From contig JAYTSD010000043.1 in the NCBI GenBank assembly GCA_043745805.1, forward strand, positions 96,001-160,000: a stretch of 64,000 nucleotides of DNA. The letters are read 5' to 3'. Position numbers and translations under genes: made by a program. Each line of letters begins with the position of its first letter. The stretch's first letter is position 1. Source of the stretch: Fibrobacteria bacterium. GTDB taxonomy: Bacteria > Fibrobacterota > Fibrobacteria > UBA11236. The notes under the pieces are model-generated. The model was given only the letters and a program-made list of their open reading frames with translations. It was not told the DNA's origin and searched no databases. Shown here one piece after another: positions 25,329-41,742 of this stretch.

Positions 25329-25332
25329 TAAT

Positions 25333-25593
25333 ATGGCTAATCGAAATATTCACATTGAAAATATACAAGTTAGCATGCCACCTCATTTGGTAGTGCAGGC
25401 GCATGAAATAGGGAATGGACTTGGTCAGGCTATTCTGCATGCCATTGCTGAATCTACGCTTGGAAAACATGGCCATAAAAAAATAGCCGCCTTAGAGGTC
25501 GGAAAAGTGAGTGTGAAAAACTATGCCGAACCGCGAGGAATACAACAACAAATTGCGAGTCATGTGGCGAATACGATTCGGGAAAAATTCTAA
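25333..25593 (+). CDS. Small hypothetical eCIS protein
   Basis: 86-aa ORF tightly packed in the operon, with N-terminal IHIENIQV strand. Confidence 0.65.
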   Translation: MANRNIHIENIQVSMPPHLVVQAHEIGNGLGQAILHAIAESTLGKHGHKKIAALEVGKVSVKNYAEPRGIQQQIASHVANTIREKF

Positions 25594-25610
25594 AAGTTAG
25601 GGTAGCGAAG

Positions 25611-26273
25611 ATGGCTGGTTTTTTAATGAGAGGCGCATTGATCGAATACGGTTCCGATTTTATGGGACCCATTCCTAATGTAGTGATCTTTCAATTCAAT
25701 CCTGAGACCTTGTCACGTACCGTACAAATTCCTCCGCGTCCGGCTTCTGCGACGGCACGCGAAACGACACAAGCGGGTCAACCTTCTATAGAAAAAATCA
25801 CCTTGAAGGCTAGCTTTAGTGCGGCAGATGAGCTGGGCGATAATAAAGCCTTAGCGCGATTGTTTGGTGTCGGGACTCGTTTAGCCGCATTGGAGAAAAT
25901 GGTTTATCCGTCCAATGAATTGACTGCTGCAATCGGTGCTGCGCTAGGCTTAGGAGGCAGCTCAACCGGTGGTGATCTTAGGCAGCCTATTCCGCGTCAA
26001 AAAATGCCAAGGATATTATTTATTTGGGGGCCATTAAAAGTATTACCGGTGGTACTCGAATCCATGAGCATTACCGAACAACAATATGATTTTTTATTGA
26101 ATCCCACGCAAGCTGAGGTTTCCATTACCATGGCCGTTAACTCTAATGATCAATGTTCGGATGATAATATAGGTAAAGGCGCTTTATCTTATTCTAATAT
26201 GGCAAAGGATGCCCAAGCCATGGCAAACCTTTCTAATACGGCTGCACAAATTGTGGACTTAATTCCATTTTGA
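25611..26273 (+). CDS. CIS tube-initiator protein (Afp7-like)
   Basis: FQFNPETL and ILFIWG...LPVVLESMSITEQ.YD..LNP..AEV motifs. Confidence 0.85.
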   Translation: MAGFLMRGALIEYGSDFMGPIPNVVIFQFNPETLSRTVQIPPRPASATARETTQAGQPSIEKITLKASFSAADELGDNKALARLFGVGTRLAALEKMVYPSNELTAAIGAALGLGGSSTGGDLRQPIPRQKMPRILFIWGPLKVLPVVLESMSITEQQYDFLLNPTQAEVSITMAVNSNDQCSDDNIGKGALSYSNMAKDAQAMANLSNTAAQIVDLIPF

Positions 26274-26286
26274 ATAAGGAGGTAAC

Positions 26287-26589
26287 ATGTTTGATGTAAA
26301 TTCTCGTTATGCCAAAAATCCAATCGTTGAGGTGGATAAGTCCAATAGCAAAAAGGTAAATGTTATCAAGTTACGCCACTTGCCTTATGTGGGAGGGAAT
26401 TTATCTGAGGTAAAAGGCATAGATAGACTCGATATTATGGCTCATCGTAATTATAAAGACGGCACAAAGTTTTGGCATGTGGCCGATGCGAATACCGAGC
26501 TTGAGGCTAATGATCTGGTAACTAATAAGTTACCTGAAAATCCACTGCAAAAGCAAGAAACCACTTTCATTTTCATTCCTGAGAACTAA
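26287..26589 (+). CDS. LysM/tail-X-like baseplate protein
   Basis: MF..NSRY start and DRLDIMAH..Y.D...FW.VADAN motif; AGGAGG RBS. Confidence 0.8.
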   Translation: MFDVNSRYAKNPIVEVDKSNSKKVNVIKLRHLPYVGGNLSEVKGIDRLDIMAHRNYKDGTKFWHVADANTELEANDLVTNKLPENPLQKQETTFIFIPEN

Positions 26590-26590
26590 A

Positions 26591-27748
26591 ATGAACAAAG
26601 CATTTCGAGTTTATTATGGGGGGAATTTGGCTACGCAAGAACAACTCAATGCTATTGAGGAAATTGTTGTGGTACAAGAAATGGGTATTGCTTGGGAAGC
26701 GCAGATAAAAATACCCGTTTGTATTGCTGAAGATGGTTCTTGGGAAGGTGAAAATGATTCCATCTTTGCAGAGTTTGCACGTGTTCGCATTGAGGCTCAA
26801 ATTGGTGAAAATGATTTTATCCCTCTAATCGAAGGGAGTATTCACTCAGGGGAGCCAGATTATAATGCATCGCCAGGCTTAAGTACCGTAACCGTTATTG
26901 TACATGATGACACTCGCTTACTACATCGCCAAGCCGAATCCGTTGCTTTTTCTGGACAAAGCGATAATGAAATTGTGAGTACTATATTTAATGATGCCTC
27001 GCTTGGTGAGAATGCTGAAATAGATAATCCTCCTGCTGGACCGGTACAAAATGCGGTCATAAACCAACAGGGCACAATGATGGAAATGTTACGTTCCATT
27101 GCGGCGCGTTATCAAAACTATTATGCCTATGTGCTTCCAGGATCCACAGTTGGAAATAGTAAAGGTGTTTTTAAAAAACTTCCGACAAGCCCAGATGCAG
27201 GTTTGCCTATTGCCTATTTGAGTGGCCCTAAGCAAAACATTTCGGAATTTCGCATTCGAAGAAATTCTGCTAGGGCCTCTCGTGTTGAAGGAGCTCATTT
27301 AAGTATGAGCGATAAAAGCGTTGCTAAAGCTAGCGCAAATCCGAGCGACAATATTCCTTCAGGAAGTGATAGTGCGACTAGTGGAAGGGATACCGATCTT
27401 CGTCTTCGTCGCCTTCCGTCGGGTATTGGCGATCATACTGATTTAACTGAAGCGGCCAATGGAATGGCTGAAGAATCTAGTTTCACACTTAGTGCTGAAG
27501 GCAGTGTAATTTCAGGACTTTTTCCAGCGATATTGCAACCGTATAAAATGCTTTCCGTGCAACTTTCCAATAGTCGTTACAGTTCCAATTATGTAATTAG
27601 CAAGGTGACACATACATTAGGCATTTCGGAATATACCCAAAGTTTTTCGGTAATAGGTAATGTGGTGTCGCCTGAGGGTAGCGCTACTATACCTGCGCCA
27701 GCAGCAGTGATGTCTGTCAGTTTTAATGTTCAAATGGGTGTATTCTAA
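26591..27748 (+). CDS. Baseplate hub protein (phage late control D / gp27-like half of VgrG)
   Basis: Position before the spike; SD..IV..IF motif; C-terminal YSSNYVISKVTHTL..SEYTQSF. Confidence 0.8.
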   Translation: MNKAFRVYYGGNLATQEQLNAIEEIVVVQEMGIAWEAQIKIPVCIAEDGSWEGENDSIFAEFARVRIEAQIGENDFIPLIEGSIHSGEPDYNASPGLSTVTVIVHDDTRLLHRQAESVAFSGQSDNEIVSTIFNDASLGENAEIDNPPAGPVQNAVINQQGTMMEMLRSIAARYQNYYAYVLPGSTVGNSKGVFKKLPTSPDAGLPIAYLSGPKQNISEFRIRRNSARASRVEGAHLSMSDKSVAKASANPSDNIPSGSDSATSGRDTDLRLRRLPSGIGDHTDLTEAANGMAEESSFTLSAEGSVISGLFPAILQPYKMLSVQLSNSRYSSNYVISKVTHTLGISEYTQSFSVIGNVVSPEGSATIPAPAAVMSVSFNVQMGVF

Positions 27749-28392
27749 TGCATAATTCTGAAGTAGAAGATCAATTAATAGGAATTTCGGAATGGAGAAA
27801 TCAACATTTCTTTGGGAAATACCGTGGTACCGTAGACGCCGTAGAAACGGGCAATGATCTCGGACTCATTTCTGTTAAAGTCCCAGATGTTTTTGGTGCC
27901 GATTTTATAGTGAAAAGAGTGCGGCCTTGTTCCCCTTTTGGAGGCAATAAACATGGCTTTGTCGCTATTCCAGAAGCGGGCGATGGAGTGTGGGTTGAAT
28001 TTGAAGCGGGAAAAACTTCCCTACCTATTTGGACAGGATTTTGGTGGGCGGATAATGAGATACCCGAACCTAAAGGTCCTTTGATACGCAGCTTTATTAC
28101 TACCAAGGGACATAAACTGCTTTTAAATGATGATGCCAATGAAGTGCAATTGCTCCATGCCAGTGGACCTGAAATCACCATGACGGATAGCGATATTACT
28201 ATTCAAATAGGGGATACCAGTATTAAATTGACTACTAGTGATTTAATCTTAAAAGTGGGCGCTTCATCTACTTCACCGCAAATCAAAATTACCGCCAGTG
28301 ACATTACCTTGCAAAGTAGTACAGTAGGTTCTATTAAGCTTACGTCAGGTGGCGTGGATATTGGTAATGGCGCTATGAAAGTAGGAGCCTAA
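27748..28392 (+). CDS. Spike protein (gp5/GpV OB-fold plus short beta-helix)
   Basis: FFGKYRGTV, VPDV and PEAGDGVWVEFEAG...PIWTG motifs; repeated I.(L/I)T.SDI strands; coupled TAATG start. Confidence 0.9.
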   Translation: MHNSEVEDQLIGISEWRNQHFFGKYRGTVDAVETGNDLGLISVKVPDVFGADFIVKRVRPCSPFGGNKHGFVAIPEAGDGVWVEFEAGKTSLPIWTGFWWADNEIPEPKGPLIRSFITTKGHKLLLNDDANEVQLLHASGPEITMTDSDITIQIGDTSIKLTTSDLILKVGASSTSPQIKITASDITLQSSTVGSIKLTSGGVDIGNGAMKVGA

Positions 28393-28728
28393 GTGCCCGG
28401 CTATATTTTAACCACGGCTAGTCAAGTAATGTGTACGCATGGAGGCAATGCGATATTAACGACTTCGAATACACAACTGCAAGTGGATAATGCACTGGCA
28501 TTATTAGAAACCGATGTGAATTCCATTGCCGGATGCCCTTTTACTTTACCCGGCCCAAAGCCATCGCCTTGTATTCGTATTGAATGGACCGCAGGTGCAA
28601 CCCAGTGTAAGAGCAATGGGACAAAGGTTTTAATTCAATCCAGTATGGGAAAATGTATTAGTGCCGAAGGGGCAACACAGGGTATAGCCATAGTGATTCA
28701 AACGCAAATGAAGGTGCAGGGGAATTGA
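28393..28728 (+). CDS. PAAR-like (DUF4280-type) spike tip protein
   Basis: VMCTHGG, IAGCPF, PC..IEW and terminal Q.KV; immediately follows the spike gene (GTG start). Confidence 0.8.
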   Translation: MPGYILTTASQVMCTHGGNAILTTSNTQLQVDNALALLETDVNSIAGCPFTLPGPKPSPCIRIEWTAGATQCKSNGTKVLIQSSMGKCISAEGATQGIAIVIQTQMKVQGN

Positions 28729-28732
28729 TTTT

Positions 28733-29113
28733 ATGAAACTGCAAAATGGTAAACATTTAAAGTTTCCCTTCCATGTAGGCAATGACGGTCGCATGAGCAC
28801 CGTTAAAACCTTGGATGAACATGTACATGATGAGCTTATCCAACTGATTCTCACTAATCAGGGAGAGCGTCCTTTTCTAGTAGACTTTGGCGCGGGTGTG
28901 CGTCGTTTGGTTTTTGAAGCGGCTGATGGAATGACGGGTGCCGTAGCGAAAGCAACGATTACTCAAGCTATTAATCGCTGGCTAGGTCATCGTGCGGTTT
29001 TGGAATTTCTAAATGTGATTGTTGAAAATTCTACCATATCCGTTGATATACGCTATCATTTGGCCGGTACAGCTGATTCGCGCTCACTTCGTTTTCAACA
29101 TGCGGGAGCTTGA
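28733..29113 (+). CDS. gp25/GPW baseplate (sheath-initiator) protein, Afp9-like
   Basis: FPF and ILTNQGERPF..DFGAG..LVFE motifs. Confidence 0.9.
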   Translation: MKLQNGKHLKFPFHVGNDGRMSTVKTLDEHVHDELIQLILTNQGERPFLVDFGAGVRRLVFEAADGMTGAVAKATITQAINRWLGHRAVLEFLNVIVENSTISVDIRYHLAGTADSRSLRFQHAGA

Positions 29114-29121
29114 TTTAGCAA

Positions 29122-31758
29122 ATGTTTAACGAATCCGTAATACCTTTAAGAGAAATGGCTTTGAGTGAGCCTTTGGCGGCACGTGCGCGATTGATGATCG
29201 AGGCCAGCTCATCGAATGCTCCGAATGGTATTAAGCTCATTCGCGTAATATCGGTGAATACGGTAAAGGATGAAGCATGGATAGAACTGCATTTTTTTAA
29301 TCTTAATTATTTATCCGCTATCGTTACAAAATATACAAATGATAAATCCTCGGCCCAAAAAATATTTCCTATTTCGGGTGGTTCAAGAATTCGTGCTGGA
29401 GGAGCTTTAGGGCAGGTTCAGGTGGATAGTTCACTACTTGTGGCATCCCCTTCGATTGCAATGCCTACTGCGACAAAACCCATATTGAAACTTCGCATTC
29501 ATCCTATTGGAGACTATTCAACGTATACCTTAGGGATTAGCGCGCTTCCGATTTCCGGATGGATATTCGATCCCTTATTTTCTGAGATTCGATTAAAGTT
29601 TCGTCCAGGTTGTTTCAATACCAATTGCGCACCCGAATGGGATATGGCCTTACCTCCTTTACCTGAGCCAACCATTGATTATTTAGCCAAGGATTATGGG
29701 TCTTTTCGTCAAACCATGATAACCGCCATGATGGAGCGCGTTCCGGAATGGCAACCCACAAGTGAAGCGGATCTCGATATGGTGCTCGCGGAACTTTTTA
29801 GTGTAGCTGCGGATGAACTTAGTGATTATCAAGATCGAGTGATGAATGAAGCCTATATTGCTTCTGCACGTAAACGTGTTTCCATTGCACGGCATGCACG
29901 CTTAATGGATTATCATATTCATCAAGGCAATCAAGCTTCTACATGGTTGGCCCTCGAAATTGAACATGATGGTATGGGACAAAAAATCTTTCAGCTTGTA
30001 CAAGGGCTCAAGGTATGGGCAGGCGAAAGTAATAGTGAGTCGGATAAAGAAGTAATTGATAGTTCCGTGGTTTTTATGTCGCGCCATGAAACCCAAACGG
30101 TACATCAGTATTTAAATAATATGGGGCTTTATACTTGGAGTGATACCATTACTTCGCTTAAGGCAGGATGCACTCGCGCAGATATAAAACTTTATGATAA
30201 ACTTTATTTGCATAGTCCTGATGCACCCATTGAAATCATCACCAAAGCTGCCGCCAAAGAAATACAAGATTTAATACGTCATGGAAATATTAAGCACTTT
30301 GTCATTGAGGAACATTTAAATCCCGAGACGGGATTGTTGGCCGGACGCGATCCTTCAAAAAGACAATTACTAAAACTGATTTCTGGAGAGGATACAAATC
30401 AATCCGCTTTGGCCATGGAAGATCCTATTACCGGTGAATGGTTTGTGCGCATACATTGGGAAAAAGCGGATGCCTTACATCGCGATTATTGTTTTAAAGT
30501 CCACTGTCCTTCGGGAAATTCCGGCACAGGTATCGGTGCAGTTAATAATATTTCTCTCTTTCATGGAAATTTGATTGAAATATTTCACGGCCGAGAAAAG
30601 ACTGTTCTTTTCAAGGATGAAAATGTTTTATTAGGCAATGATCCCAATAAATCTTATGAGTTTCATTATGAGCGAACACGCTGGGGAGCGCTTTGCCATA
30701 TACCGGATACTTTTTTGGCCTATCGTAATACAGATCCTGGCGGTGACGTAGCACCACTGTCAACAATTAACTTAACGGTTGAATTTCTCTCGGGGCCATC
30801 CGATCCATGGAATGAGGTTCCAAGCCTTATTCATAGTGACAATTCGGGTGAAGGTGGCGACCATTTTGTGGTAGAAACCGATGAAAATCATAAAAGCCTT
30901 ATTCGTTTTGGTAATAATAAAAATGGCATGGAATTGCCCGATGAGGCGACGGTTACCGTGACCTATCAATATGGCGATCCTCGTGAAGGCAATATTGGCG
31001 CGGATCGAATTATGTACTTCGATATTTCGACTGTGAAGATTGATCCTGCGACTCCAACATTTCTTTTGCATAGTTGTTGGAATCCATTCGATGTGGTTAA
31101 TGGACGTGATCGAGAGCCTTTAGCGGAAATTATTCGTCGCGTGCCCGAGGCTTATCGCCAAAGACAACTGCGCGCAGTGACGCTAAACGATTATATTGCT
31201 CGGGCCGAAGAAATTGAAGGCGTTTCTCGCGCAGTGGCAAAATATGCGTGGACAGGAAGCTGGCGTACCGTGCAAGTTACCATCGATCCAATAGGAACGA
31301 ATGAACTTTCGGAACCCCTGAGAAAGCAAATAGAGTCATATTTAAACGCGGTGCGTTTAATTGGTGAAGATCTCGAAGTGCGTCCGCCGAAATTTGTTCC
31401 CTTAGAAATTCAAGTCCATCTTTGCGCCAAGCCCGACGTTTGGATAGAAGATATTCGTTTTGTTTTGGAGCAAGAGTTTTCAGTAGGCTGGACGCCGGAT
31501 GGCCGCATGGGATTTTTTCATCCTGATTTATGGACATTTGGCCAATCTCTTCATGCCAGTCAAATTATGGGCCGCGCTTTTACTGTTCAGGGAGTAGAAC
31601 ATATTATTAGTGTTTCTATTAAACGTTGGAATTCCCCCTTTCCTCCTGTCGAATCGCTAACTCAGGTGGATTTCAATGAGATTATTCAAGTACAAAATGA
31701 TTCCGATCATATGGAATTAGGTACGATTACCTTTGCTATCAAAGGAGGTCGTCAATGA
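29122..31758 (+). CDS. Baseplate J-like wedge protein 1 (Afp11-like)
   Basis: IDYLAKDYGSFRQ, DELSDYQDRVMNEAY, ARLMDY, IRFGN..NG, RAVTLNDY and WTGSWRTV. Confidence 0.9.
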   Translation: MFNESVIPLREMALSEPLAARARLMIEASSSNAPNGIKLIRVISVNTVKDEAWIELHFFNLNYLSAIVTKYTNDKSSAQKIFPISGGSRIRAGGALGQVQVDSSLLVASPSIAMPTATKPILKLRIHPIGDYSTYTLGISALPISGWIFDPLFSEIRLKFRPGCFNTNCAPEWDMALPPLPEPTIDYLAKDYGSFRQTMITAMMERVPEWQPTSEADLDMVLAELFSVAADELSDYQDRVMNEAYIASARKRVSIARHARLMDYHIHQGNQASTWLALEIEHDGMGQKIFQLVQGLKVWAGESNSESDKEVIDSSVVFMSRHETQTVHQYLNNMGLYTWSDTITSLKAGCTRADIKLYDKLYLHSPDAPIEIITKAAAKEIQDLIRHGNIKHFVIEEHLNPETGLLAGRDPSKRQLLKLISGEDTNQSALAMEDPITGEWFVRIHWEKADALHRDYCFKVHCPSGNSGTGIGAVNNISLFHGNLIEIFHGREKTVLFKDENVLLGNDPNKSYEFHYERTRWGALCHIPDTFLAYRNTDPGGDVAPLSTINLTVEFLSGPSDPWNEVPSLIHSDNSGEGGDHFVVETDENHKSLIRFGNNKNGMELPDEATVTVTYQYGDPREGNIGADRIMYFDISTVKIDPATPTFLLHSCWNPFDVVNGRDREPLAEIIRRVPEAYRQRQLRAVTLNDYIARAEEIEGVSRAVAKYAWTGSWRTVQVTIDPIGTNELSEPLRKQIESYLNAVRLIGEDLEVRPPKFVPLEIQVHLCAKPDVWIEDIRFVLEQEFSVGWTPDGRMGFFHPDLWTFGQSLHASQIMGRAFTVQGVEHIISVSIKRWNSPFPPVESLTQVDFNEIIQVQNDSDHMELGTITFAIKGGRQ

Positions 31759-34700
31759 GCGAAGACTCTTGTGAAAATGGTTGCGTATTACCACTGTACT
31801 TTCCTCGCCGTCCAGGTGAGAATCCACCGACTCTGCATGCTAAGGATTGTCCCTGTTGCAGCCCCGAAAATCAAATCGGATCCGACATTAGCTCGGACAA
31901 TAGACCTGCATTATCGCATTTCAACTATCGAATTGGTTCTTATGGAACCATACGTGAATGGTTATTTCATCAAATAAATCAAACTCCTAATCTCAAGAAT
32001 TGGACGCATCGCGCTTCGGATGATCCGGCCATTGCTTTGTTGGAAGGCGCCTCCATTCTTGGAGATATTCTCACTTTTTATCAGGAAACTTATGCCAATG
32101 AAGCTTTTTTAAGAACAGCAAAGTGGCGGGAGAGTATTTCCGATTTGGTGCGCTTATTGGGTTATAGACTTTCGCCGGCCATTGGCGGCAATGCAACCTT
32201 TGCTTTTGAAATTAAGAAACCGGAACCTGTTGTCATCCCGAAAGGATTCCCTCTCAAAGCGACTTTAAAAGAAATTGCTCAACCTTCCATTTTTGAAACC
32301 AAAGAAGAAGTTAAAGCCTATCCTTGGCTGAATCGCTTCAATTTATTTAAGCCCTTGGATGAGGGTGATATTAGCCCTGCTACGACTGAGTTTTATATTA
32401 CTTATCCCGAACAACTTTTAATGCCCATTGATCTTAAAGTAGGTGATCGGTTACTGGTTGGGGATCCCGATATTTCGGCTATTTTTGGAGCAAGTGTTTT
32501 TTCGAATGCGGAAATAGTAATTGTCGATTCCATCACGGAATTACATGGACTTAAGACTTATAAAATCAAGGGTAACCTAAAGCGTACTTCAAATATAGGC
32601 GCATTTTATGCCTTTCGTTTAGGACGAACCTTTCATCATTTTGGACATAATGGTCCCTTACAAATAGTTGATAAATCAAAACCGATTAAATCCACTTCTA
32701 AATCTACTTCTGAAACGAATTCAGCTCCGGCAAAAATGGAATCTTCTTCAAAGGTTCCTTATTTAAATGTCCCGTTTACTCGTCCGATTAAAACCGATTC
32801 AGGCATTTTTTCAAATTCGGTTATAAGTCCATCGATAGGTGATGATGAATTTCCTTTAGACTCGGAAGTACAAGATATCCCCAGCAATGCAGCCGTAATT
32901 ATTCAGACACGTATTGCCTATCCGGGTGAAACGGATATTGCAAAATATACGGACTTTCAAACCTTAATTCGTTCCATTAAAAGAATTGATTCTACTACTA
33001 TGACTTGGGGTGGAATTTCAAGAACAGTCAGTAAGCTTAAAGTATCAGGTCCGGTTTCGGACTCTATTGGAATCGGTGATATAAATTTAATTAATGCCGC
33101 AATAAATACTGCGAACGTAGCAAATACTAATTCCAATAATGCCAGCTATGCAGCTATCCAAGCCCGAGACATTGCGAAAAATGCTAAAGCCGCTGCCGCT
33201 GCTGCGGCAATTGATGCTACTGATGCCGATAATGAGGTGATTTCAAAAAAGGCTGAATTTGCCACTGCTGAATCTAAAGCCGCGACATTAGCCGTTGCTG
33301 CTGCGGTTGCAGGCACTGCTCTAAAAGATAATACTACTGATTTACGAGCGCGGGATGCTGTTTTAAAAGCGCAGGATGCCGTTAATGCTATCAACACAGC
33401 TCAAGGCTCAACTAATATTGCATCTTTATCTGCCTCTTCATCAAAACAATATTGGGATTCGCTTACTACTCCTGGTGCCGTGGCTGGTCAAATAGGGCTT
33501 TCATTACTTATTCCGTGTGGACCATTTGCCGCTGGGTTCGCATTAACGGTTGCTGGAAAAGCCAAAAATCTAGCAATAATCGTTTCTCAAAACGTAACTA
33601 CGGCAAAAGGAAAAGTTGACCTTGCTAAATCAGCAGCAGATGATTCAAAAAGAGCAGTCGACGCTGTTGCTGCTGCCGCAGCTGCAGACGTCGATGCCAA
33701 AGCACGTTATGATAAAGCCAAGGATGTTGCGGATAAAGCCGAAATTGCAGTTACTACTGCAAAAAATGATGTTACTACATCACAAACAAAAGCAGATACC
33801 GCTCATGCAAAAGCAATTCAACTTGCTCAGGATGTTGAAGGTGCAGAAGTACTTGCAGAGATGGCGGAAGACTTGGCTGAAATTACGGCCGAAATCGCAG
33901 CTCTCAAAGAAGCGATTAAGGTAACGCGCTTGTATATTGGTGATGCACTTCTGCATGAAGTAACAAGCCCCTTATTCACATTAAAGCGAGCAAAAAAAGA
34001 AACCTCTTTAATATCGTTTAATACACTCAATTTTTATGGCACGGTAGAGGAAGTAAATTCCCTCAAAGGCCGAAGAATACTTTTGGAAAAAAAGGACCAA
34101 GCTCCTAAGGTATTGAATGTAGCGGAAGTAAATTCACTTTCGGCTAATGGAACAGAAATGCTCTCGCAACTTCATGAAATTGAACTTTCAGAGTCTGTGA
34201 CCTATAGCGATTTTCCCAATATAAATCCAATAGTTACGGTTTTTGGTAATCTGGTTGAGGCTAATGAAGGCAAAACCGTTCCCGAAGTAGTTCTGGGTAA
34301 CGGTGATGCTACTCTAGTATTTCAGAACTTTAAACTTCCTAAAACACCGTTGACTTATCACTTAAGACCTGACAACACACCTACTGAAACGCCGGAAGCG
34401 CAAATCTATGTAGATGGGCGCATGTGGGTAAAAGTGGACAGCTTTTTTGGACGAAGCGCTAAGGAACAAATTTATATCATTCGTGAAGATGCTGAAGGCA
34501 ATAGCTGGGTGCAATTTGGCGATGGTAAAACAGGTGCAAGATTGAGTTACGGTAATAGTAATGTTACGGCCATTTATCGCCTCGGGGCAGGATCTTTTGG
34601 ACCTTTAAAAGAGGATACCAAGATTCAGGCTTTAGCTAAGCTCAAGAATCTGGATAAAATTCAGATGTTAGATGTCGTCTCGGGTGGTGTTGCGCCGGAG

Positions 34701-35357
34701 GACGGTGAAAATGCGCGTTATGCAGCCCCAGCAAAGGTGCAAAGTCTTGGACGCATAGTCAGTATTAAAGATTTTGAAGCCGAGGCGGCTGCTATTCCAG
34801 GTGTGGATAGAGTCTCCGCAGCATGGCAATTGGTAGAAAATATTCCTGCCGTAGTGATAACGGTTTTGATGGCAACTGGACGCCATGCCGAATTTGAGTC
34901 TGTCCGTAATACGCTGATTACTTTTAATTCGCTTCGCGGTGCAGGACGAACTTCTATTATCGTTGCAGAAGGAAAACGAATGTATGTTACCGCTTCACTT
35001 CAATATATGCTGCAATCGGGATATAGAGCGGACTTAGTGGAGCCAGAAATTCGGCGCGCCTTAGGGGTAAATTTTGCGCGGACAATGGGGAAAGAGGATC
35101 AAACGGGAATTTTTAGTTTGCAGCAAAGGAATTTTGGCGCGCGAGAATATGCTTCCTCTCTCGAAGGAATGATGCAAAATATTGCGGGTGTATTATGGGC
35201 GGAGAGCAAAGCCTTTACCGAGCTCATGGAAAGTGACAGTCCTGAAGAAATAATGTTACCCATAAATTCGGAACTAAAACCCATTGTGCCTTGTAATTCC
35301 AAAAATATTCTTAGTCTCTATGACAAACATTTATTCTTAACAGCAGTAAGCGCATAG
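31755..35357 (+). CDS. Baseplate J-like wedge protein 2 with a large Ala-rich helical insertion
   Basis: NRPAL..F.YRIG, DDPAIALL, DILTFYQE..ANE.FLRTA, VQFGDGKTGARL and GRIVSIKDFE; residues ~443-722 form an Ala-rich heptad segment. Confidence 0.9.
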   Translation: MSEDSCENGCVLPLYFPRRPGENPPTLHAKDCPCCSPENQIGSDISSDNRPALSHFNYRIGSYGTIREWLFHQINQTPNLKNWTHRASDDPAIALLEGASILGDILTFYQETYANEAFLRTAKWRESISDLVRLLGYRLSPAIGGNATFAFEIKKPEPVVIPKGFPLKATLKEIAQPSIFETKEEVKAYPWLNRFNLFKPLDEGDISPATTEFYITYPEQLLMPIDLKVGDRLLVGDPDISAIFGASVFSNAEIVIVDSITELHGLKTYKIKGNLKRTSNIGAFYAFRLGRTFHHFGHNGPLQIVDKSKPIKSTSKSTSETNSAPAKMESSSKVPYLNVPFTRPIKTDSGIFSNSVISPSIGDDEFPLDSEVQDIPSNAAVIIQTRIAYPGETDIAKYTDFQTLIRSIKRIDSTTMTWGGISRTVSKLKVSGPVSDSIGIGDINLINAAINTANVANTNSNNASYAAIQARDIAKNAKAAAAAAAIDATDADNEVISKKAEFATAESKAATLAVAAAVAGTALKDNTTDLRARDAVLKAQDAVNAINTAQGSTNIASLSASSSKQYWDSLTTPGAVAGQIGLSLLIPCGPFAAGFALTVAGKAKNLAIIVSQNVTTAKGKVDLAKSAADDSKRAVDAVAAAAAADVDAKARYDKAKDVADKAEIAVTTAKNDVTTSQTKADTAHAKAIQLAQDVEGAEVLAEMAEDLAEITAEIAALKEAIKVTRLYIGDALLHEVTSPLFTLKRAKKETSLISFNTLNFYGTVEEVNSLKGRRILLEKKDQAPKVLNVAEVNSLSANGTEMLSQLHEIELSESVTYSDFPNINPIVTVFGNLVEANEGKTVPEVVLGNGDATLVFQNFKLPKTPLTYHLRPDNTPTETPEAQIYVDGRMWVKVDSFFGRSAKEQIYIIREDAEGNSWVQFGDGKTGARLSYGNSNVTAIYRLGAGSFGPLKEDTKIQALAKLKNLDKIQMLDVVSGGVAPEDGENARYAAPAKVQSLGRIVSIKDFEAEAAAIPGVDRVSAAWQLVENIPAVVITVLMATGRHAEFESVRNTLITFNSLRGAGRTSIIVAEGKRMYVTASLQYMLQSGYRADLVEPEIRRALGVNFARTMGKEDQTGIFSLQQRNFGAREYASSLEGMMQNIAGVLWAESKAFTELMESDSPEEIMLPINSELKPIVPCNSKNILSLYDKHLFLTAVSA

Positions 35358-35361
35358 GGTA

Positions 35362-38010
35362 ATGGATATGACAAAGCATAAACGCGTAGAACTTTATCGT
35401 CGCCTTCCGGAAATTTACCGAATTAAAGATGAAGGTTTACCCGAAAATTTTCTTTATGCAGGAGAGCCGGTTGAAGCTTTTCAATTGCGCAGCTATCTCG
35501 CACCTGTCGAAGATATGTTTTCGGCTATTCATGAAAATATTGAATCGCTCTATCATGATTTAAGCATCGAAACCTGTGATGATTGGGTGATTCCTTATAT
35601 TGCCGACCTTTTAGGTGCTAGTCATTTATCGGGAGACCCATGGACATTGCGTGCCGATGTCGCGGATACCATTGCTCTTCGCCGTCGCAAGGGTACTCTG
35701 GGTGCTATCGAATTATTGGCTTTTATTTTGACGAAATGGGGTGTGCATTCCGTTGAGTTAATGGAAAACTTAATTTGGAATCAATCTCTCAATCATCAGC
35801 GCCCTGATGAAGGCGGAACACCGCCTTATAGTTTACCGAAGTATTTGCGTACCGCACCGATTCGTGGGGGCACGGTTAATTTACGCGATCCATCTTTATT
35901 AGCGCAATTGAATACACCCTTTGATCCTTTTGCGCATGTGGTGGATGTGCAACCGCATGCAACAGGACAGGTTCGCTACAACCTTCCCAATCTGGCAATT
36001 TATTTTTGGCGCTTAAAAAGTTATCGCCTAAATGCTATAAAGCCACTCACGCGAATAGTAACACCGGTATCAGGTGCAGCACGTGTAGTACGTGTTAACA
36101 TAGATCCTATGCCAATTAATAATCTTTCGTTCCCCTATGTTAAACCTGCCAATACACCAGCAGGAAGACCCATAACGCTTTTCAACAATAGTCGCCTAGA
36201 TTTATTTAATCAACGTCGTACGGGAACCGATAAATTGAATCTTGCTGCTATTGCACCGCGCATTTCTTCGGTCGATCAGGTTGCTGGTCCCATTCCAGTT
36301 GAGCGCTTATCCGATTTCGATATTGCCCAAGCTTACGATGACTCATTAGCTTCAGCAATGCCACAAAGCTTATCCGTGTTTACTGAAGCATCTTTTACCG
36401 CACCTCAGGAATATATCTCTATTGCAAGTTATGATGAAACAAAACCGCTACTTAATACCTTAAATATTTCTGATCAAGGATTACAGTTACATATTCCCCA
36501 TTTAACTTTTCCGAATCAAGGTTGGCCACATACCACTCTCCCTCGTAATTGGACTATACGAGGAGAAAATTTATGCGCTTGGGAAAAAGGATTACAGCCA
36601 CCCTTAAAAGATCGTGAAATTGCTATTGATCCGCTTCGTGGCCGTATTTGCATGGGCGTATCAACTGATACACAAGCCAACGCTTTGCTTAATGATTTGT
36701 TGCTCACCTTTTCTTATGGAGCGGTGGGCGAGGTGGGCGCGCATCCTATTGAGTATCCAGAGTTACCCCATGATTTTAATCATAAGTTGAATCCCTCTGT
36801 AATTTATAAGTCCGTGAATTTTCGTCAAGGGCCGAGTTTACAAAAGGCTTTAGAGGAAGCACTTAAAGAAGCTCAGCAAAAAGTGAATATCGATCCGATG
36901 AGTCTAGGCAATGTACCTATTGTCATAGAAATTACCGATAACTTTACCCATAGCCTAAATATTTCTGCCATTCCCGTACTTGATCTTACAACTATTATTG
37001 AAGCGGGAATGACCAGCATTAAACTTAATGCGTCGCTAATCATTCGTTCAGCAGATGGGCAAAGGCCCATTATCGAACTTGGCCAGCCGCTTGCATTTCG
37101 TCCGGCACAAGTTCTTGGGGCTAATACAACCCAGCAATTGCAATTTGATGCGGTGATGGACGCATTGTTCGTAAGACTCGAAGGATTATATATTGCGCGT
37201 GGATTGAAATATGCGGCAGGACTTCCACTTTTAGCGCGTGCTGCACTTAATAAGTTGGAAATTTTAAACTGTACGCTTGATCCTGGTGGCTTCAGTCGCC
37301 TTGATAAATCGCGTGCTCCGCTATTATCGGGGATAAGAATATTTGCAAACTATGGTTTTGATACCCTTAATGAAAAACTCAAATTTAAGCAGGTGCCAGA
37401 AATTATTATTCAGCGTTCCATTTGCGGTGCAATTTTTACGGATGAGGGATATCGACTTTGCCTAAGCGATTCGATTATCGAATCTATTCCCATAGAAGTT
37501 ACCCTTAGTGGAGGTAGCAAACGAATGGAGTCCTTTGCTATTGCAGGTGCAGCCAATATTGTGAAGGAATATGCTGGAGAAATTATTATTAATTGTGTAA
37601 CTATTTTGGGTCGAGTGCGCGCTTCCAATATTAAAGGCTACGGTGGAATTTTTAAAAATGTACTCGAAGTTTTTGATGAGCAAAGTGGCTGCTTAAAATA
37701 TAGCTACTTCGCGGATGATTCGAAAAGTCCTGCATCACCCGATGAAATTAAAAATCGATTACCACAACATTTTGCTTGCGTTATGGGTAAAGATGCGAAA
37801 TTAATATTTACGAGTGAAATTTTTGGTGAAGCCGCCTATTGTCAACTTTCGCTTGAATGTGATACACGCATTTTAGAAGAAGGCGTGGGCAATGATCAAA
37901 TGGGAGCTTTTAATTTTCAATTAGAAGCCCATAAATGGCGCAATTTAAAAATCAGATTTCGAGAATTTATGCCGGTTGGAATCAGACCGCTTTTGATTCC
38001 AATTAATTAG
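35362..38010 (+). CDS. Baseplate wedge / tail protein I-like (Afp12-like) with C-terminal beta-solenoid region
   Basis: LYRRLPEIYR, IETCDDWVIPYIADLLG, RADVADTIALRRRKGT, IDPLRGR and MGAF...RFREFMPVG. Confidence 0.85.
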   Translation: MDMTKHKRVELYRRLPEIYRIKDEGLPENFLYAGEPVEAFQLRSYLAPVEDMFSAIHENIESLYHDLSIETCDDWVIPYIADLLGASHLSGDPWTLRADVADTIALRRRKGTLGAIELLAFILTKWGVHSVELMENLIWNQSLNHQRPDEGGTPPYSLPKYLRTAPIRGGTVNLRDPSLLAQLNTPFDPFAHVVDVQPHATGQVRYNLPNLAIYFWRLKSYRLNAIKPLTRIVTPVSGAARVVRVNIDPMPINNLSFPYVKPANTPAGRPITLFNNSRLDLFNQRRTGTDKLNLAAIAPRISSVDQVAGPIPVERLSDFDIAQAYDDSLASAMPQSLSVFTEASFTAPQEYISIASYDETKPLLNTLNISDQGLQLHIPHLTFPNQGWPHTTLPRNWTIRGENLCAWEKGLQPPLKDREIAIDPLRGRICMGVSTDTQANALLNDLLLTFSYGAVGEVGAHPIEYPELPHDFNHKLNPSVIYKSVNFRQGPSLQKALEEALKEAQQKVNIDPMSLGNVPIVIEITDNFTHSLNISAIPVLDLTTIIEAGMTSIKLNASLIIRSADGQRPIIELGQPLAFRPAQVLGANTTQQLQFDAVMDALFVRLEGLYIARGLKYAAGLPLLARAALNKLEILNCTLDPGGFSRLDKSRAPLLSGIRIFANYGFDTLNEKLKFKQVPEIIIQRSICGAIFTDEGYRLCLSDSIIESIPIEVTLSGGSKRMESFAIAGAANIVKEYAGEIIINCVTILGRVRASNIKGYGGIFKNVLEVFDEQSGCLKYSYFADDSKSPASPDEIKNRLPQHFACVMGKDAKLIFTSEIFGEAAYCQLSLECDTRILEEGVGNDQMGAFNFQLEAHKWRNLKIRFREFMPVGIRPLLIPIN

Positions 38011-38022
38011 AAAGAGGATAAG

Positions 38023-41000
38023 ATGAAAGGTGATTTTTCCGCTTGGAATAAAGACCGAGCTCAGAACTTTAGAGGAGTACTTCATCAACAAGGAAGAGTA
38101 TTACTCGACCGTGATTGGAATGCACAAACTGAAATATTCAATGAATGGCAGGAAACCGCTGGTAGAGATGCTTTTGGCGCAGGCGTCGCCGCCGTACCCG
38201 CTGAAGTCTCACAAAGTTTTAAAATAACCGAAGCCAAAATAGAATCTGGAAAAATCAAGATTTCCGCCAATAAGGGGCGAGTATGGGCAGATGGTTTATT
38301 AGTAGAATCATTACAAGATATTACTAATCGTATTGCCACCTATTTAAATCTTCCTCCCGCTTCCGTTCCCAATCCTGCGGCGCATCAACGTGACACGGTG
38401 ATACTGGAAACATGGATGGACGCTTTGAATCCTTTTCAAGTCCCCTCTTTACTGATTGAGCCCGCATTGGGTGGTGTCGATACTACAGAGCGTGTACTTA
38501 CCTCCACACGATTTCGACTATTTCGAATGGAAGCTGGGGAAACATGTGATTCTATTATCCCTATGCTTAAAGATGATTTTTCGGCAAAAGGTAAGCTTAC
38601 GGTTAAGCTTAATCCAAATACCAGTACCGATGGCGATTGCCCAGTTATAGAAAGCGGTGGTTATACAGGATTTGAACATCGACTATATCGCATTGAAATT
38701 GCTGAAACCAAAAAGCCCGACGCTTATTTTAAGTGGTCGCAATTTAATGGCGGATTGGTCGGCACAGGCGACTTTGATGTAGTTAACCGGAAAGTGACTC
38801 TTCATGGAAACATCAATGCCATACAACATTCCGGCCTTAAAGATTTTTATCTCGAAGCATTAGAATTCGATGCGACATTGGGGGCCTGGAATGTGGCGTA
38901 TGCGGCTAAGGCTACACTTGGCCCAGATCATTTGTTGACCTTACCTGCTGATGGCGTGGCAGATGAATTTTTAGGAAAAATGATGTCGGGAAGAAAGTTT
39001 TTTCGACTTTGGAATGGGATAGCCGCGATAGCCAATTTTGCTGCTGCGGATAAGGACTTACCGGATTTGGTAGGAATCAAATTGAAATTTGATTCGGTTT
39101 TGGCGAATAAATATACTCCAGCCGATTTTTGGACCTTTGAAGTTCGTGCTGGTGGATTAGGAAATCCTGCGGTATTGTTGGGTGATCCTGTCACCTTTGC
39201 AGGTTCGCCACCGCAGGGTATTTTTTATCATCGTGTGCCTTTAGCAGAGCTAATGTGGACTAGTAATGTCATTACTGGAGATCAAATTGAAGATTGTCGT
39301 CGTGTTTTTCAACCGCTGACAAAACAAAAAACATGCTGCACCTATCGAGTCGGTGACGGTATTCATTCGCATGGTGATTTTACCAAAATTCAGGATGCCA
39401 TCAACGCACTTCCAAAAAAAGAAGGTGGAGAAGTATGCGTGTTACCTGGCTATTATGAAGAAAATATCGAAATTAAAGCGCCGCATAATCGAAATATTAT
39501 TCTCAAGGGATGCGGGCCTCGCACCGTTATTCAATTTAAAACCAATGCTCCTGTGATTCATATACATTATGGACAAAATATTAGGATTGAATCGCTGGCC
39601 ATTGTGGCTCATGATGAGGGGATGGGGATTTTTCTTGAAGGCGAAGAGAAATCGGCTAACCATAAAAATAGCGAGAAATATTTGAAGGATATTGTGCTAA
39701 CCGAGTTATTTGTGAAAGCGGTAAAGAATTCTGCCATCAAAGGGCATCTAGCTCAATTTCTTACGCTCAGTAATTCCATTATACATATTAAAGATTTTGA
39801 AACAAAAAAAGTGGCTGTGTATTTGGCCGGCGATGATATGTTAATTGAACGGTCGGAGATTCGTGTTCTCCCCGAAGTCATTACATCACAGGATAATAAA
39901 ACTAAAATTAGTTTCGATTTATTGAACAAAGTAAACGAGATGGGTAATAATTCTCTCGAAGTTGAAAATGTTGGAATTCGTTCTCGAGGTGGAATCAGCG
40001 ATCCATTTGGTGTCGAATCGAATGCCAAATCTGGTAAAACTCTTCCTTCTGATGCTGAAAAGAAACAAAGTGGTAATACAGATATTTTAAATGATTTGGA
40101 TTTTTTGTTACCCTCCCAGGGTGCCGCGGGTGGCCTACAAATCGGAGGTGGCTCGGATCGTGTTCGTATTATTGATAACCTTATTGTTAGTGGAACTGGA
40201 AACGGAATCACTTTAGGAAGTATTGACTTAATAAAAAATCAGGTAGTCATTACTAATCATGATCCCATCGAGCCAAAAAATCCAAAAAAAGATTGTTGCT
40301 TTCCAGATACCGGAATCGTTGATGAGGGCGATGTCACAGTCGAAGGTGCAAAACAAGTCGCAGGTCCTCCACTAAGCGATATTTTAATTAAAGATAATCG
40401 CATCTTTAATATGGGCCGTAATGGAATCGGTGTGGTTGCTTTTTTTAGTCTGGGTGAATTGGATATTAAGATTAAGGATAAAATAGATCTTAAGGATAAG
40501 AATTCGGTAATGGGTTTAGTTTCAGTAACTCGGCTTAAAATCATCGAAAATCGTATTGAACAATGTATGAATATTTCAATTGGCGACATTCCCGAAAAAT
40601 TCAAATGGAAAATTGGTTATGGGGGAATTTCCCTTGCTAATACCGAAACCTTGGTGATACGTGATAATACGATAGTTAATAATGGGCCAGATTTTTTAGA
40701 GCCGATTTGTGGCATTTTTATATTGTCGGGTGAAGGGATAGAAATATCTCGCAATCATATTTTGAACAATGGTATTGCTAATGAAAAAGAGGTAACTAGT
40801 AAATCTGTAAAAAGTGGCCCTCGCGGTGGAATTTTCATTGCCCGTGCTCGCCAATCTAATATTGAGTTACAGCAGGGTTTCGCTCATAAATCGAATTTTA
40901 CTCGTGATTTTCCTGCCGCAAAGATTCAAGAAAATATTGTTTCCGCTCCCCTCGGGAGAAGTTTAACGCTTTTTGCAGATGGCGCGGTATCCGTTATTGG

Positions 41001-41742
41001 CAATCAATTTACCAGCTTGGGTATTCCGCCTTTTGATTTTCTGGGTTTGATTCGCAATTTAAGTAAAATGGATAAATCAGATAAAAATTTTCTATGGCAA
41101 ATTATCGATCTCATTGCTGGGAACATTTTAATTTTCGATTTAGGTAAATCATCATTCCTCTCTAAAAATGGATTTCAGGATATAAAGAGTGGTGAGGCTG
41201 CACAAAGCTTTAAGGCTAGGAATACTTCTTCCGTAAATGACCAAATGGGAACATCAGCAGTGACTGGAAACATAAGTAAACGATATTTTTCGAACGGAAA
41301 TGTTTTATTTACTAATAATCAATGCCATTTAAATTTGTTCAATTTTAAAGAAGGAATGGCTTTAGCTGCCATTTTTGTTGGTAGCTTAGATGATATTGGA
41401 TTTCACAACAATCAAACTGATTGTGATATTGATGATGATTTTCTATTAGTAAATACGTTTGTTTTTGGAATTTCTTTACGCGTTAGTGACAATCATTTCA
41501 CGGAAACTATTTCTAAGGCGATTTTTTCAGCAATGACTTTGGGCGTACAAAATATTACTACCGACAATGAATCCATTCATTGCCTAATGGTTAAAGGGAC
41601 TGCTTATCTTAGTAAACACAATTTGGTATTCACTGAAATAGCCACGGTTAATGGCGATATCAGTGAATATGTTGGCCCACATCTTTGTGATGACGGCAAA
41701 AGTTCATTTGATAATTTCGGCATGGTATTTCTTCCGGGATAA
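38023..41742 (+). CDS. DUF6519-domain tail-fibre-like protein with right-handed parallel beta-helix
   Basis: MKGDFS, VLHQQGRVLLD.DWN, EPALGGVDT, GGYTGFEHRLYRIEI, FKWS..NG and DCRRVFQPL; then IQDAINALP..GGEVCVLPG and repeated I..N.I beta-helix rungs. Confidence 0.88.
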   Translation: MKGDFSAWNKDRAQNFRGVLHQQGRVLLDRDWNAQTEIFNEWQETAGRDAFGAGVAAVPAEVSQSFKITEAKIESGKIKISANKGRVWADGLLVESLQDITNRIATYLNLPPASVPNPAAHQRDTVILETWMDALNPFQVPSLLIEPALGGVDTTERVLTSTRFRLFRMEAGETCDSIIPMLKDDFSAKGKLTVKLNPNTSTDGDCPVIESGGYTGFEHRLYRIEIAETKKPDAYFKWSQFNGGLVGTGDFDVVNRKVTLHGNINAIQHSGLKDFYLEALEFDATLGAWNVAYAAKATLGPDHLLTLPADGVADEFLGKMMSGRKFFRLWNGIAAIANFAAADKDLPDLVGIKLKFDSVLANKYTPADFWTFEVRAGGLGNPAVLLGDPVTFAGSPPQGIFYHRVPLAELMWTSNVITGDQIEDCRRVFQPLTKQKTCCTYRVGDGIHSHGDFTKIQDAINALPKKEGGEVCVLPGYYEENIEIKAPHNRNIILKGCGPRTVIQFKTNAPVIHIHYGQNIRIESLAIVAHDEGMGIFLEGEEKSANHKNSEKYLKDIVLTELFVKAVKNSAIKGHLAQFLTLSNSIIHIKDFETKKVAVYLAGDDMLIERSEIRVLPEVITSQDNKTKISFDLLNKVNEMGNNSLEVENVGIRSRGGISDPFGVESNAKSGKTLPSDAEKKQSGNTDILNDLDFLLPSQGAAGGLQIGGGSDRVRIIDNLIVSGTGNGITLGSIDLIKNQVVITNHDPIEPKNPKKDCCFPDTGIVDEGDVTVEGAKQVAGPPLSDILIKDNRIFNMGRNGIGVVAFFSLGELDIKIKDKIDLKDKNSVMGLVSVTRLKIIENRIEQCMNISIGDIPEKFKWKIGYGGISLANTETLVIRDNTIVNNGPDFLEPICGIFILSGEGIEISRNHILNNGIANEKEVTSKSVKSGPRGGIFIARARQSNIELQQGFAHKSNFTRDFPAAKIQENIVSAPLGRSLTLFADGAVSVIGNQFTSLGIPPFDFLGLIRNLSKMDKSDKNFLWQIIDLIAGNILIFDLGKSSFLSKNGFQDIKSGEAAQSFKARNTSSVNDQMGTSAVTGNISKRYFSNGNVLFTNNQCHLNLFNFKEGMALAAIFVGSLDDIGFHNNQTDCDIDDDFLLVNTFVFGISLRVSDNHFTETISKAIFSAMTLGVQNITTDNESIHCLMVKGTAYLSKHNLVFTEIATVNGDISEYVGPHLCDDGKSSFDNFGMVFLPG

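Follow-up and report, generated by a model that had tools for sequence, protein, structure and literature searches.

We describe here an unusual element in a stretch of 64,000 nucleotides from the genome of a Fibrobacteria bacterium (hereafter the window), which lies inside contig C43 of an assembly comprising 3.95 Mb in 50 contigs and carries a complete Afp/PVC-type contractile injection system locus. The element is a 280-residue insertion in J2, the second of two baseplate wedge proteins of this locus. It is a lineage-restricted in-frame replacement of a loop of about 15 residues between beta-strands, it is predicted to form a two-helix antiparallel coiled-coil stalk of about 19 nm, and its distal ~130 residues, made up of two helices of ~38 residues and a tip of 34-56 residues, are a hypervariable cassette between two node motifs. 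Comparison of the gene sequences shows that genes nearly identical elsewhere have exchanged this cassette by recombination, the breakpoints lying at the node motifs. Tentatively, we read the element as one of six stalks per particle, whose exchangeable tips would contact the surface or the membrane of the target.

The J2 gene lies where the gene of a gp6-like wedge protein is expected, in the order gp25, J1, J2 and Tail_P2_I, and its start codon overlaps the stop codon of the upstream gene (ATGA). Residues 831-1151 match TIGR02243 with an E-value (E) of 7.5e-36 and 123.9 bits, which is under the cut-off of 155.8 bits. The Pfam scan of J2 gave no family at E up to 0.01, PF04865 not being reported, and a sequence search of the Protein Data Bank with J2 returned no match. 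The profile of alignment A1 matched gp6 of a Klebsiella phage (E 0.00098), and according to Foldseek the C-terminal fold of the predicted model is gp6-like, with matches to T4 gp6 (5iv5_B, E 2e-7) and to the Streptomyces system (9gtp_1G, E 2.2e-7). When residues 1000-1200 of the model were compared with VIA, 8kea_d (Z 13.2) and 9gtp_1G (Z 12.7) were found, and altogether the C-terminal 200 residues match gp6-type baseplate proteins with Z-scores of 10-13, including chains from Streptomyces, Algoriphagus, Anabaena and Photorhabdus. J1 and J2 share 24-28% identity, and this in two segments only; sequence searches of solved structures with J1 and the Cis12-like protein of the locus gave matches at chance level only. 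By analogy with (gp6)2-gp7 of T4 and gpJ/gpI of P2, J1, J2 and the gpI-like protein would together form the wedge. A separate feature of J2 is the cluster of cysteines C6, C10, C32, C34 and C35 at its N-terminus (residues 1-40, positions 31755-31874), a region of low AlphaFold2 confidence; C6 and C10 are nearly invariant in 34 aligned homologs, and the cluster may be a metal-binding knuckle.

The original prediction had described residues 443-722 of a beta-rich baseplate protein (33081-33920) as an Ala-rich helical segment, and these coordinates proved to be exact, since Ala accounts for 29% of residues 443-572 and 28% of residues 602-722 as opposed to 6-9% in the flanks. Residues 573-601 account for all three prolines of the insertion and for six of its ten glycines. 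That the segment is an insertion was likewise borne out by the alignment of homologs, 292 of which were obtained from a search of 5.8 billion proteins. Among the 120 listed, most are 857-1036 residues long, 14 have a length of 1195-1260 residues and six of 1333-1357 residues. The insertion is present in 14 of them, as ~290-320 residues between conserved flanks, and is thus not common to most; 89 of the 120 aligned homologs have a short form of 14-16 residues at the same region. In the alignment of 34 homologs, the conserved flanks are separated by 309-333 residues in 14 sequences and by 27-34 residues in the other 20. The insertion is also rare at the level of loci, being found in three of the 57 loci taken from one genome per species (Pseudaquabacterium terrae S2 and two Fibrobacteria assemblies) and in four of the 42 classifiable metagenome loci, with no match to the insertion query in the remaining 18 rows. 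The insertion-bearing loci span unrelated phyla, as Pseudaquabacterium and Fibrobacteria illustrate. With the insertion alone as query, phmmer found a single relative, P0002 (E 2.8e-8), among 1.84 billion representatives. When the profile of alignment A2 was compared with longer proteins, the five matches among the candidates listed all belonged to the same subfamily, which hints that the module may be restricted to the J2 subfamily. A scan of metagenomes with the A2 patterns gave 128 pattern matches, none of which was confirmed by tblastn and which are probably a composition effect, and the ESM Atlas contained no usable match. The genome itself holds one copy only and no silent cassettes, and the gene is without meaningful repeats.

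An assembly artefact, which the original prediction had named as a possible objection, is ruled out because independent assemblies carry the same in-frame insertion, the reading frame being intact in 15 distinct insertion sequences. In addition, the GC content at third codon positions and the Ala codon use of the insertion are the same as in the rest of the gene, and the stretch is matched without a single difference by contigs from four sediment-metagenome runs of one study. Among these, two contigs extend across all of it, although the assembly may have been made from them, and both junctions are bridged by contigs of a third run.

The full-length AlphaFold2 model of J2 has a mean predicted local distance difference test score (pLDDT) of 68.4 and places the insertion between strands 421-430 and 725-727 of a confidently modelled, beta-rich module. 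Helices are predicted at residues 443-521, 526-571, 573-581 and 594-720, and model confidence declines outwards, from a block pLDDT of 83-92 close to the base through 58-75 beyond it to 37-47 at the tip. A separate model of the insertion, built from an alignment of 14 sequences, agrees with this (mean pLDDT 76). An antiparallel helical hairpin of ~18 nm had been proposed at the outset, and AlphaFold2 together with the structure search yields a predicted hairpin of 18-19 nm with an uncharged turn rich in Pro and Gly, a geometry that rests on structure comparison of predicted models. The best structure matches, with 50 entries listed per search, are long two-helix antiparallel stalks. The top match is PrgA (6z9l_A; Z 16.4, 300 aligned residues, root-mean-square deviation (rmsd) 4.8), which came, as did the E9 and E2 matches below, from a search independent of Foldseek. 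The colicin R-domains match with Z 11.3-12.8 and rmsd 1.6-3.1 Å, represented by E9 (5ew5_A; Z 12.3, rmsd 1.6 over 130 residues), the E2 R-domain with BtuB (2ysu_B; Z 11.3) and, for the full model, E3 (1jch_A; Z 12.8, rmsd 2.5 over 141 residues). Further stalk matches are the N-terminal domain of RipA, the arms of Smc and MukB, chemoreceptor hairpins, YscO and the channel helices of TcA. Since long-helix matches with Z below ~13 can be non-specific and may therefore reflect a mere common arrangement, all of these are taken as evidence of the hairpin shape only.

An Alacoil is an antiparallel two-helix coiled coil with Ala at every seventh position. Both of these features were found here, the antiparallel helices in the predicted models and the Ala spacing in the alignment, so that the Ala heptad pattern is an Alacoil signature as far as the models hold. 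Ala is at least 85% conserved among the 14 homologs at positions 449/456/463/470 and 641/648/655/662/669/676/683. For the Ala fraction, the lag-7 autocorrelation amounts to 0.27 in arm 1, a value reached by one of 2000 shuffles, and to 0.43 in arm 2, which no shuffle out of 2000 reached. The hydrophobic periodicity of the window sequence alone is weak, and it is the alignment-based Ala pattern that is decisive instead. The insertions of the homologs are 27-45% identical to that of the window protein, and their arm lengths are nearly fixed, arm 1 comprising 126 residues in 12 of 14 sequences and 129 in two, and arm 2 comprising 119 residues in 13 of 14 and 115 in one. The most conserved motifs are AATLAVAAA.A..ALKD..TD in arm 1 and AAAAD.DA..R in arm 2. 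Within them, ALKDxxTD and AAAADxDAxxR form a polar node, and the residue count from the tip suggests that the two motifs face each other ~7 nm below it. The subdivision of the stalk is given in Table 1.

The case for cassette exchange comes from comparing the parts of the stalk between close relatives. Between P0008 and P0014, identity amounts to 98% for the core and 93% for the proximal stalk but drops to 19% for the distal arms and 28% for the tip. The window protein shares 75% identity in the core with P0002, its closest core relative, and 17% in the distal arms, where it is 46-49% identical to P0003 and P0005. The types of the distal cassette disagree with the core tree because P0005 groups with P0003 distally (74% in the distal arms) and with P0004, its nearest relative in the core (85%), in the core tree, the distal arms of P0005 and P0004 being only 32% identical. 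The transitions are sharp at the DNA level as well. In windows of 20 codons, the identity of the Fibrobacteria genes of loci L009 and L019 is 0.85-1.00 outside the cassette. Between ALKD and AAAADADA it falls to 0.38-0.60, with insertions and deletions, reaches 0.67 in the window spanning the right-hand motif and then returns to 0.98. To judge by this regional pattern, the data point to module exchange and not to slow drift. We also weighed a diversity-generating retroelement as the origin of this variation but discarded it, as the cassettes differ by insertions and deletions and in all residues, not by adenine-specific substitutions. A further metagenome contig, L059, carries a J2 gene that is a mosaic as a whole: its C-terminal core is 94% identical to that of P0007, its N-terminal core is 84% identical to P0006 and 56% to P0007, the switch lies in or near the stalk and the distal cassette is of a new type.

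The tip at the far end of the cassette was first reported as an uncharged segment of 29 residues (PGAVAGQIGLSLLIPCGPFAAGFALTVAG, residues 573-601, positions 33471-33557) with ~130 residues before it and ~120 after it. Its position and the flanking lengths (130 and 121 residues) stand, but the uncharged run is in fact 33 residues long (569-601). Of 5000 shuffles each, 165 of the whole protein and 45 of the insertion contained an uncharged run of at least 33 residues. The tip contains the most hydrophobic 19-residue window of J2. No window of the structural proteins of the locus lies above 2.0 on the Kyte-Doolittle scale, the sole one above this value (2.13) being found in an effector. A central tip of 34-56 residues is present in all 14 homologs, with a fraction of bulky hydrophobic residues of 0.24-0.41 as opposed to 0.09-0.21 in the arms, with 0-2 basic residues in 13 homologs and four in one, and with 2-9 residues of Pro plus Gly. 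The longer tips resemble two short hydrophobic helices joined by a Pro-rich turn. The tip of the window protein (AVAGQIGLSLLI-PCGP-FAAGFALTVAG) would correspondingly consist of two helices of ~11-12 residues, probably enough to dip into one leaflet and too short for the bilayer. Cysteine occurs in five of the 15 insertion sequences, always at the turn of the tip (IPCGP, NPCLP, DPICAP, TPCAP, FLCGG) and flanked by proline in four of the five; the arms are free of it. The sequences concerned are the window protein (33516-33527, residues 588-591), P0003, P0008, P0009 and L059, and the cysteine could be a disulphide, metal or acylation site.

J2 homologs have acquired a large insertion at another position, too. 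Six of the 120 listed homologs (P0033, P0057, P0068, P0076, P0079 and P0080), which form a separate clade, contain a largely Ala-rich insertion of 407-431 residues after reference position 242, within the same beta-module. Similarity to the first insertion was detected neither by hhalign (probability 0.2%) nor by blastp (best E 0.07), and yet this insertion again consists of conserved arms (e.g. AVRLAAIA.SSAAAGA.DRV) around a hypervariable, uncharged and hydrophobic segment centred on Pro and Gly, such as SVGIGATVLTFGPLAGLLLGALLAALPTGS, with a hydrophobicity peak of 2.16. These comparisons show a second, unrelated insertion that appears from its sequence to be helical and to have converged on the same hydrophobic-tip design. 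Loci L062, L067 and L104 probably carry the second insertion as well. Shorter inserts were observed at the first site, namely 83 residues in P0071, helical-looking and without a hydrophobic tip, and 91 acidic residues in P0077; the two proteins belong to the sister branch of the insertion-bearing P0016.

The surroundings of J2 are those of an injection system with or without the stalk. The locus contains, in this order, the sheath, the tube, a Pvc16-like protein, an AAA ATPase, a gpV/VgrG-like spike, a PAAR-like protein, gp25, J1, J2, Tail_P2_I, DUF6519 and three effectors of the eCIS_core/DUF4157 type. The Pfam families that define an Afp/PVC-type locus were all found (PF04984/PF17482, PF06841, PF14065, PF00004, PF04717 and three copies of PF13699), so that by its gene content it is an Afp/PVC-type extracellular contractile injection system (eCIS), with a predicted extracellular action. 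The DUF6519 gene is taken as the tail-fibre gene because PMC12923769 associates DUF6519 with eCIS fibres, a figure legend of that paper placing it beside the N-terminal baseplate-anchor (eBAP) domains of these fibres and another part including it among the eCIS marker Pfams. In eight of eight examined loci of other organisms, including Nitrospira, Pyrinomonadaceae, Verrucomicrobia, Nodosilinea, Jettenia and a Methanosaeta archaeon, the order of genes is the same (inner-tube-like, J1, J2, gpI-like, DUF6519). Two of these loci carry the insertion and six lack the 280-residue insertion, five of the six being free of any insertion. The lengths of the partner proteins are similar across the eight, whether an insertion is present or not. 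As the gene set is the same and the partner lengths are similar in both cases, the insertion is an optional add-on to an otherwise unchanged machine. The proposal that it explains the missing lysis and anchor genes is not supported, for the five insertion-free loci have the same gene order including DUF6519.

If the wedge of J1, J2 and the gpI-like protein is built like that of T4, each particle would carry six stalks, and these could act as probes that touch the surface of the target cell or dip into its membrane, adding adhesion, target range or a firing trigger to the role of the DUF6519 fibre. In function they might then be likened to a colicin R-domain or a PrgA-like stalk, with the business end far from the anchor. 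Contact with the target fits the hypervariable, recombining cassette better than a housekeeping tether to the membrane of the producer does, and this is why we lean, with reserve, towards target contact. A bolder version would see a targeting and triggering device that is independent of the fibres, in which six hydrophobic-tipped Alacoil legs dip into or bind the membrane of the target before the spike does, hold the baseplate in place and control firing, a design that would have arisen twice in one wedge protein; this version we consider doubtful, if worth stating.

A number of points weigh against the stalks as target probes. The function is wholly inferred, the sequencing runs listed include no RNA entry, and targeting is already served by a fibre gene. 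The tip has a pLDDT below 50 in both AlphaFold2 models, and the caution about long-helix Z-scores given above applies here. The tip is no more than moderately hydrophobic: its peak (1.77; Kyte-Doolittle, 19-residue window) was reached by 3141 of 5000 whole-protein shuffles and 1419 of 5000 insertion shuffles, and buried segments of soluble proteins of the locus are comparable, with 1.99 in the AAA protein and 1.73 in the Pvc16-like protein. Because shuffles often match the peak, the window sequence gives modest support for a special tip, and the support comes from the homologs instead. In 13 of 14 homologs the tip contains 2-6 acidic residues, which several homologs carry in an L-x-D-P-F/L turn, and a canonical transmembrane helix is unlikely, as the best 19-residue window includes two Pro and two Gly. 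Tip variability alone could reflect weak constraint; it is the sharp breakpoints alone that argue for exchange. Also in favour of exchange, the insertion requires five changes on the tree of the core only, at least four of which are forced by supported branches, and in the approximately unbiased test, made with 36 rows (14 with the insertion and 22 chosen neighbours or outgroups), one common clade of all insertion-bearers is rejected at p 0.00048. This test, however, assumes one tree while the J2 genes are recombinant, so that it is confounded.

Among the rival explanations, the stalks could serve inside the particle, where they would brace it, for example by docking or holding back the DUF6519 fibres, by running alongside the sheath or by meeting below the baseplate in a helical spike cage like that of Alg11/Cis11, the tips being buried against one another or against a partner. 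Such a role has precedents, as extra domains of gp6-like Cis11 proteins make the spike cage and fibre docking sites according to passages of PMC8894136 and PMC8894135. The arm lengths fixed in 14 of 14 sequences and the conserved node suggest a ruler that reaches a defined site, and burial of the tip would presumably solve the solubility problem of an exposed hydrophobic element. However, the tip and distal arms are wholly different between genes that are 93-100% identical elsewhere, which a fixed partner within the particle would constrain, and most relatives have the same gene set but no stalk, which is thus dispensable for assembly; an internal role is accordingly unlikely. The cassette exchange speaks also against a tether of the machine to the cytoplasmic membrane of its producer, comparable to Cis13/Cis12 or the cage site of type iv type VI secretion systems, which would mean a cell-bound and not an extracellular action. 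It would be unexpected that a part swapped between near-identical genes should hold the particle to its own bilayer. Baseplate and fibre extensions are known as membrane anchors of contractile injection systems (PMC8894136 and PMC8894135, in part), and an uncharged tip that is the top hydrophobic window of J2, in a locus whose other structural proteins stay below 2.0, would suit this purpose. Yet two prolines, a hydrophobicity peak of 1.77 and the acidic residues that most homologs have in the tip make a canonical transmembrane helix unlikely. Loci that lack the insertion do not differ from those that have it in the DUF6519 gene or in gene order, and the insertion occurs in loci of unrelated phyla. 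Together this makes an anchor quite unlikely.

It is improbable that the insertion is a tolerated low-complexity expansion, an Ala-rich insert at a permissive surface loop with no specific role. This would account for the other short inserts at the site (P0071 and P0077), for the low identity of the insertions and for the single relative obtained by phmmer. Conserved geometry and convergence weigh against neutrality, in that the arm lengths and Ala heptads are conserved, the latter far beyond the shuffles, the K, D and R of the node never vary, 15 distinct sequences all keep the reading frame and an unrelated second insertion has the same design. A pore-forming or perforating device can be given very little credence. 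TcA pore-domain helix pairs are indeed among the matches (6rwb_A, Z 11.0; 5lki_A, Z 10.2), and the channel tips of TcA are hydrophobic loops joining long helices (sections of PMC6795518). But these Z-scores fall in the non-specific range of long helices, no Pfam family was found in J2, the tip loops of TcA are reported in the same sections to be highly conserved as opposed to the hypervariable tip of the stalk, and perforation is already served by the spike and tube.

Contact of the stalks with the target thus being the reading we prefer, its possible significance is as follows. Targeting by contractile injection systems is currently assigned to the tail fibres, and re-engineering goes through them. 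If the wedge protein carries a naturally exchanged stalk cassette of ~130 residues, this would offer a second handle on target range and show how, in nature, tips can be swapped as modules at defined junction motifs. That two unrelated insertions share an arrangement of conserved arms and a hypervariable, hydrophobic tip suggests a selected solution and not an accident. Under the bolder version, wedge-protein loops would be a second, so far undescribed locus of host-range evolution in these systems. The question can be addressed at the bench, as the cultured isolate Pseudaquabacterium terrae S2 (locus L001) bears the insertion.

The coordinates of the locus, of the genes around J2 and of the parts of the stalk are collected in Table 1. 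The wedge triplet of the distant paralogs J1 and J2 and the P2-gpI-like protein (29122..38010) has the same order in the Acidobacteriota, Nitrospira, Verrucomicrobia, cyanobacterial, Planctomycetota (Jettenia) and Methanosaeta loci examined. Downstream, three consecutive eCIS_core (DUF4157) genes occupy positions 42283..50770. The first effector ends in an AHH nuclease domain, and the third contains a strongly hydrophobic segment with a peak of 2.13 at residue 521, the start of its listed open reading frame overlapping the preceding gene by 125 bases. The guanine plus cytosine content is 0.46-0.52 at positions 1-14000 of the window as opposed to 0.37-0.43 across 14001-50770, the flank upstream of the locus having 0.48-0.52. 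This drop and the spread of the locus over many phyla are consistent with horizontal acquisition.

Table 1. Positions in the window of the injection-system locus, its wedge genes and the parts of the J2 insertion.
Feature	Positions	Strand	Evidence and remarks
Complete Afp/PVC-type contractile injection system locus	~17153..50770	+	Pfam and NCBIfam scans
gp25	28733..29113		Position 5' of J1
J1, first gp6/Baseplate-J-like wedge paralog, 878 aa	29122..31758	+	PF04865 E 1.7e-6; TIGR02243 E 6.8e-45
J2, second gp6/Baseplate-J-like wedge protein, insertion host, 1200 aa	31755..35357	+	TIGR02243, structure matches
Whole insertion, J2 aa 443-722, predicted two-helix antiparallel Ala-rich coiled-coil stalk	33081..33920	+	Alignments, AlphaFold2, structure matches, Ala heptads
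Proximal arm 1, aa 443-508	33081..33278	+	Block pLDDT 83-92 over 431-510; Ala kept at 449, 456, 463, 470, 474, 481
Node motif 1, aa 509-529, AATLAVAAAVAGTALKDNTTD	33279..33341	+	K524, D525, D529 invariant; predicted helix break 522-525; left cassette boundary
Distal arm 1, aa 530-568	33342..33458	+	Variable cassette; identity matrices; block pLDDT 58-72
Tip, aa 569-601, uncharged 33 aa, SLTTPGAVAGQIGLSLLIPCGPFAAGFALTVAG	33459..33557	+	Turn at IPCGP; pLDDT below 50
Distal arm 2, aa 602-640	33558..33674	+	Variable cassette
Node motif 2, aa 641-652, AAAADVDAKARY	33675..33710	+	R651 invariant; right cassette boundary
Proximal arm 2, aa 653-722	33711..33920	+	Ala kept at 655, 662, 669, 676, 683; block pLDDT 81-92
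P2-gpI-like (Tail_P2_I) wedge protein, Cis12-like, 882 aa	35362..38010	+	PF09684 E 0.0012, just under cut-off; conserved position
DUF6519 and beta-helix protein, tail-fibre candidate, 1239 aa	38023..41742	+	PF20129 E 1.8e-9

Large modules in a loop of a gp6/J-like wedge protein are known from other systems, namely the spike cage formed by domain IV of Alg11 in Algoriphagus and the cage and C-terminal extension of Cis11 in Anabaena, and the sites of such extensions are regarded as evolutionary hotspots by the authors of PMC8894135 and PMC8894136 in the parts of these papers considered. The C-terminal domain of J2 matches the Algoriphagus and Anabaena baseplate chains 7aeb_A and 7b5h_AD, both with Z 11.5. 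However, the Alg11 and Cis11 modules are beta-rich and resemble carbohydrate-binding modules, whereas the J2 insertion is a predicted two-helix stalk of ~19 nm with an exchangeable tip, and equivalence of the insertion point is not implied. The transmembrane helix of Anabaena Cis13 and the extension of Cis12 are, like the stalk, helical elements linked to the baseplate, with a hydrophobic segment at the membrane (PMC8894136, in part), although for J2 a contact with membranes is hypothetical. Cis13 is a protein in its own right, trimeric and fibre-like, whose transmembrane helix is C-terminal; it is reported only from filamentous cyanobacteria and serves as an anchor to the thylakoid of the producer, whereas the J2 element is a predicted hairpin inside the wedge protein with a Pro/Gly-turn tip and a hypervariable cassette.

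Enterococcal PrgA likewise uses a very long, kinked two-helix coiled coil to present a functional element far from its anchor (the portion of bioRxiv 10.1101/2020.06.18.156562 covered). PrgA measures 38.5 nm, is fixed to the cell wall and ends in a globular CAP protease domain, where J2 has a hydrophobic element of 34-56 residues. The R-domains of colicins E2, E3 and E9, which gave the best-fitting superpositions, are likewise Ala-rich antiparallel coiled-coil hairpins, but they are shorter than the J2 stalk and are not parts of an injection machine. Homology of sequence to them was not detected, the Protein Data Bank search with J2 being empty and the identity in the superpositions being 15-17%. 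The tip of the colicin R-domain binds the receptor, and these tips are polar.

The original prediction had likened the insertion to the pore formers ClyA and Hbl, an analogy that was not supported. ClyA-type toxins are helical bundles with the tongue packed on the bundle. No Pfam family was found in J2 and the sequence search of solved structures gave no match, so that membership in ClyA/Hbl/Nhe by sequence was rejected. None of the 50 entries listed by each structure search is ClyA, Hbl or Nhe, an absence from the list that does not exclude the fold, and the matches are instead PrgA, colicin R-domains, Smc arms and chemoreceptors. ClyA/Hbl/Nhe and TcA share with J2 only the general idea of long helices that end in a hydrophobic element, the TcA helix pairs matching at Z 10-11. 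TcA forms a pentameric channel with conserved tip loops (PMC6795518, in part), whereas the J2 tip is hypervariable. A search of full-text literature, which did not extend to the supplements of the cited papers, found no paper on contractile injection systems in which a baseplate insertion is an alanine-rich or antiparallel coiled coil, nor a gp6-like protein that bears a long coiled-coil stalk whose hydrophobic tip is swapped; passages of PMC12998442 were likewise uninformative. While extensions of wedge proteins as such are already known, what is new in J2 and its homologs is the recombining distal cassette and the unrelated second insertion.

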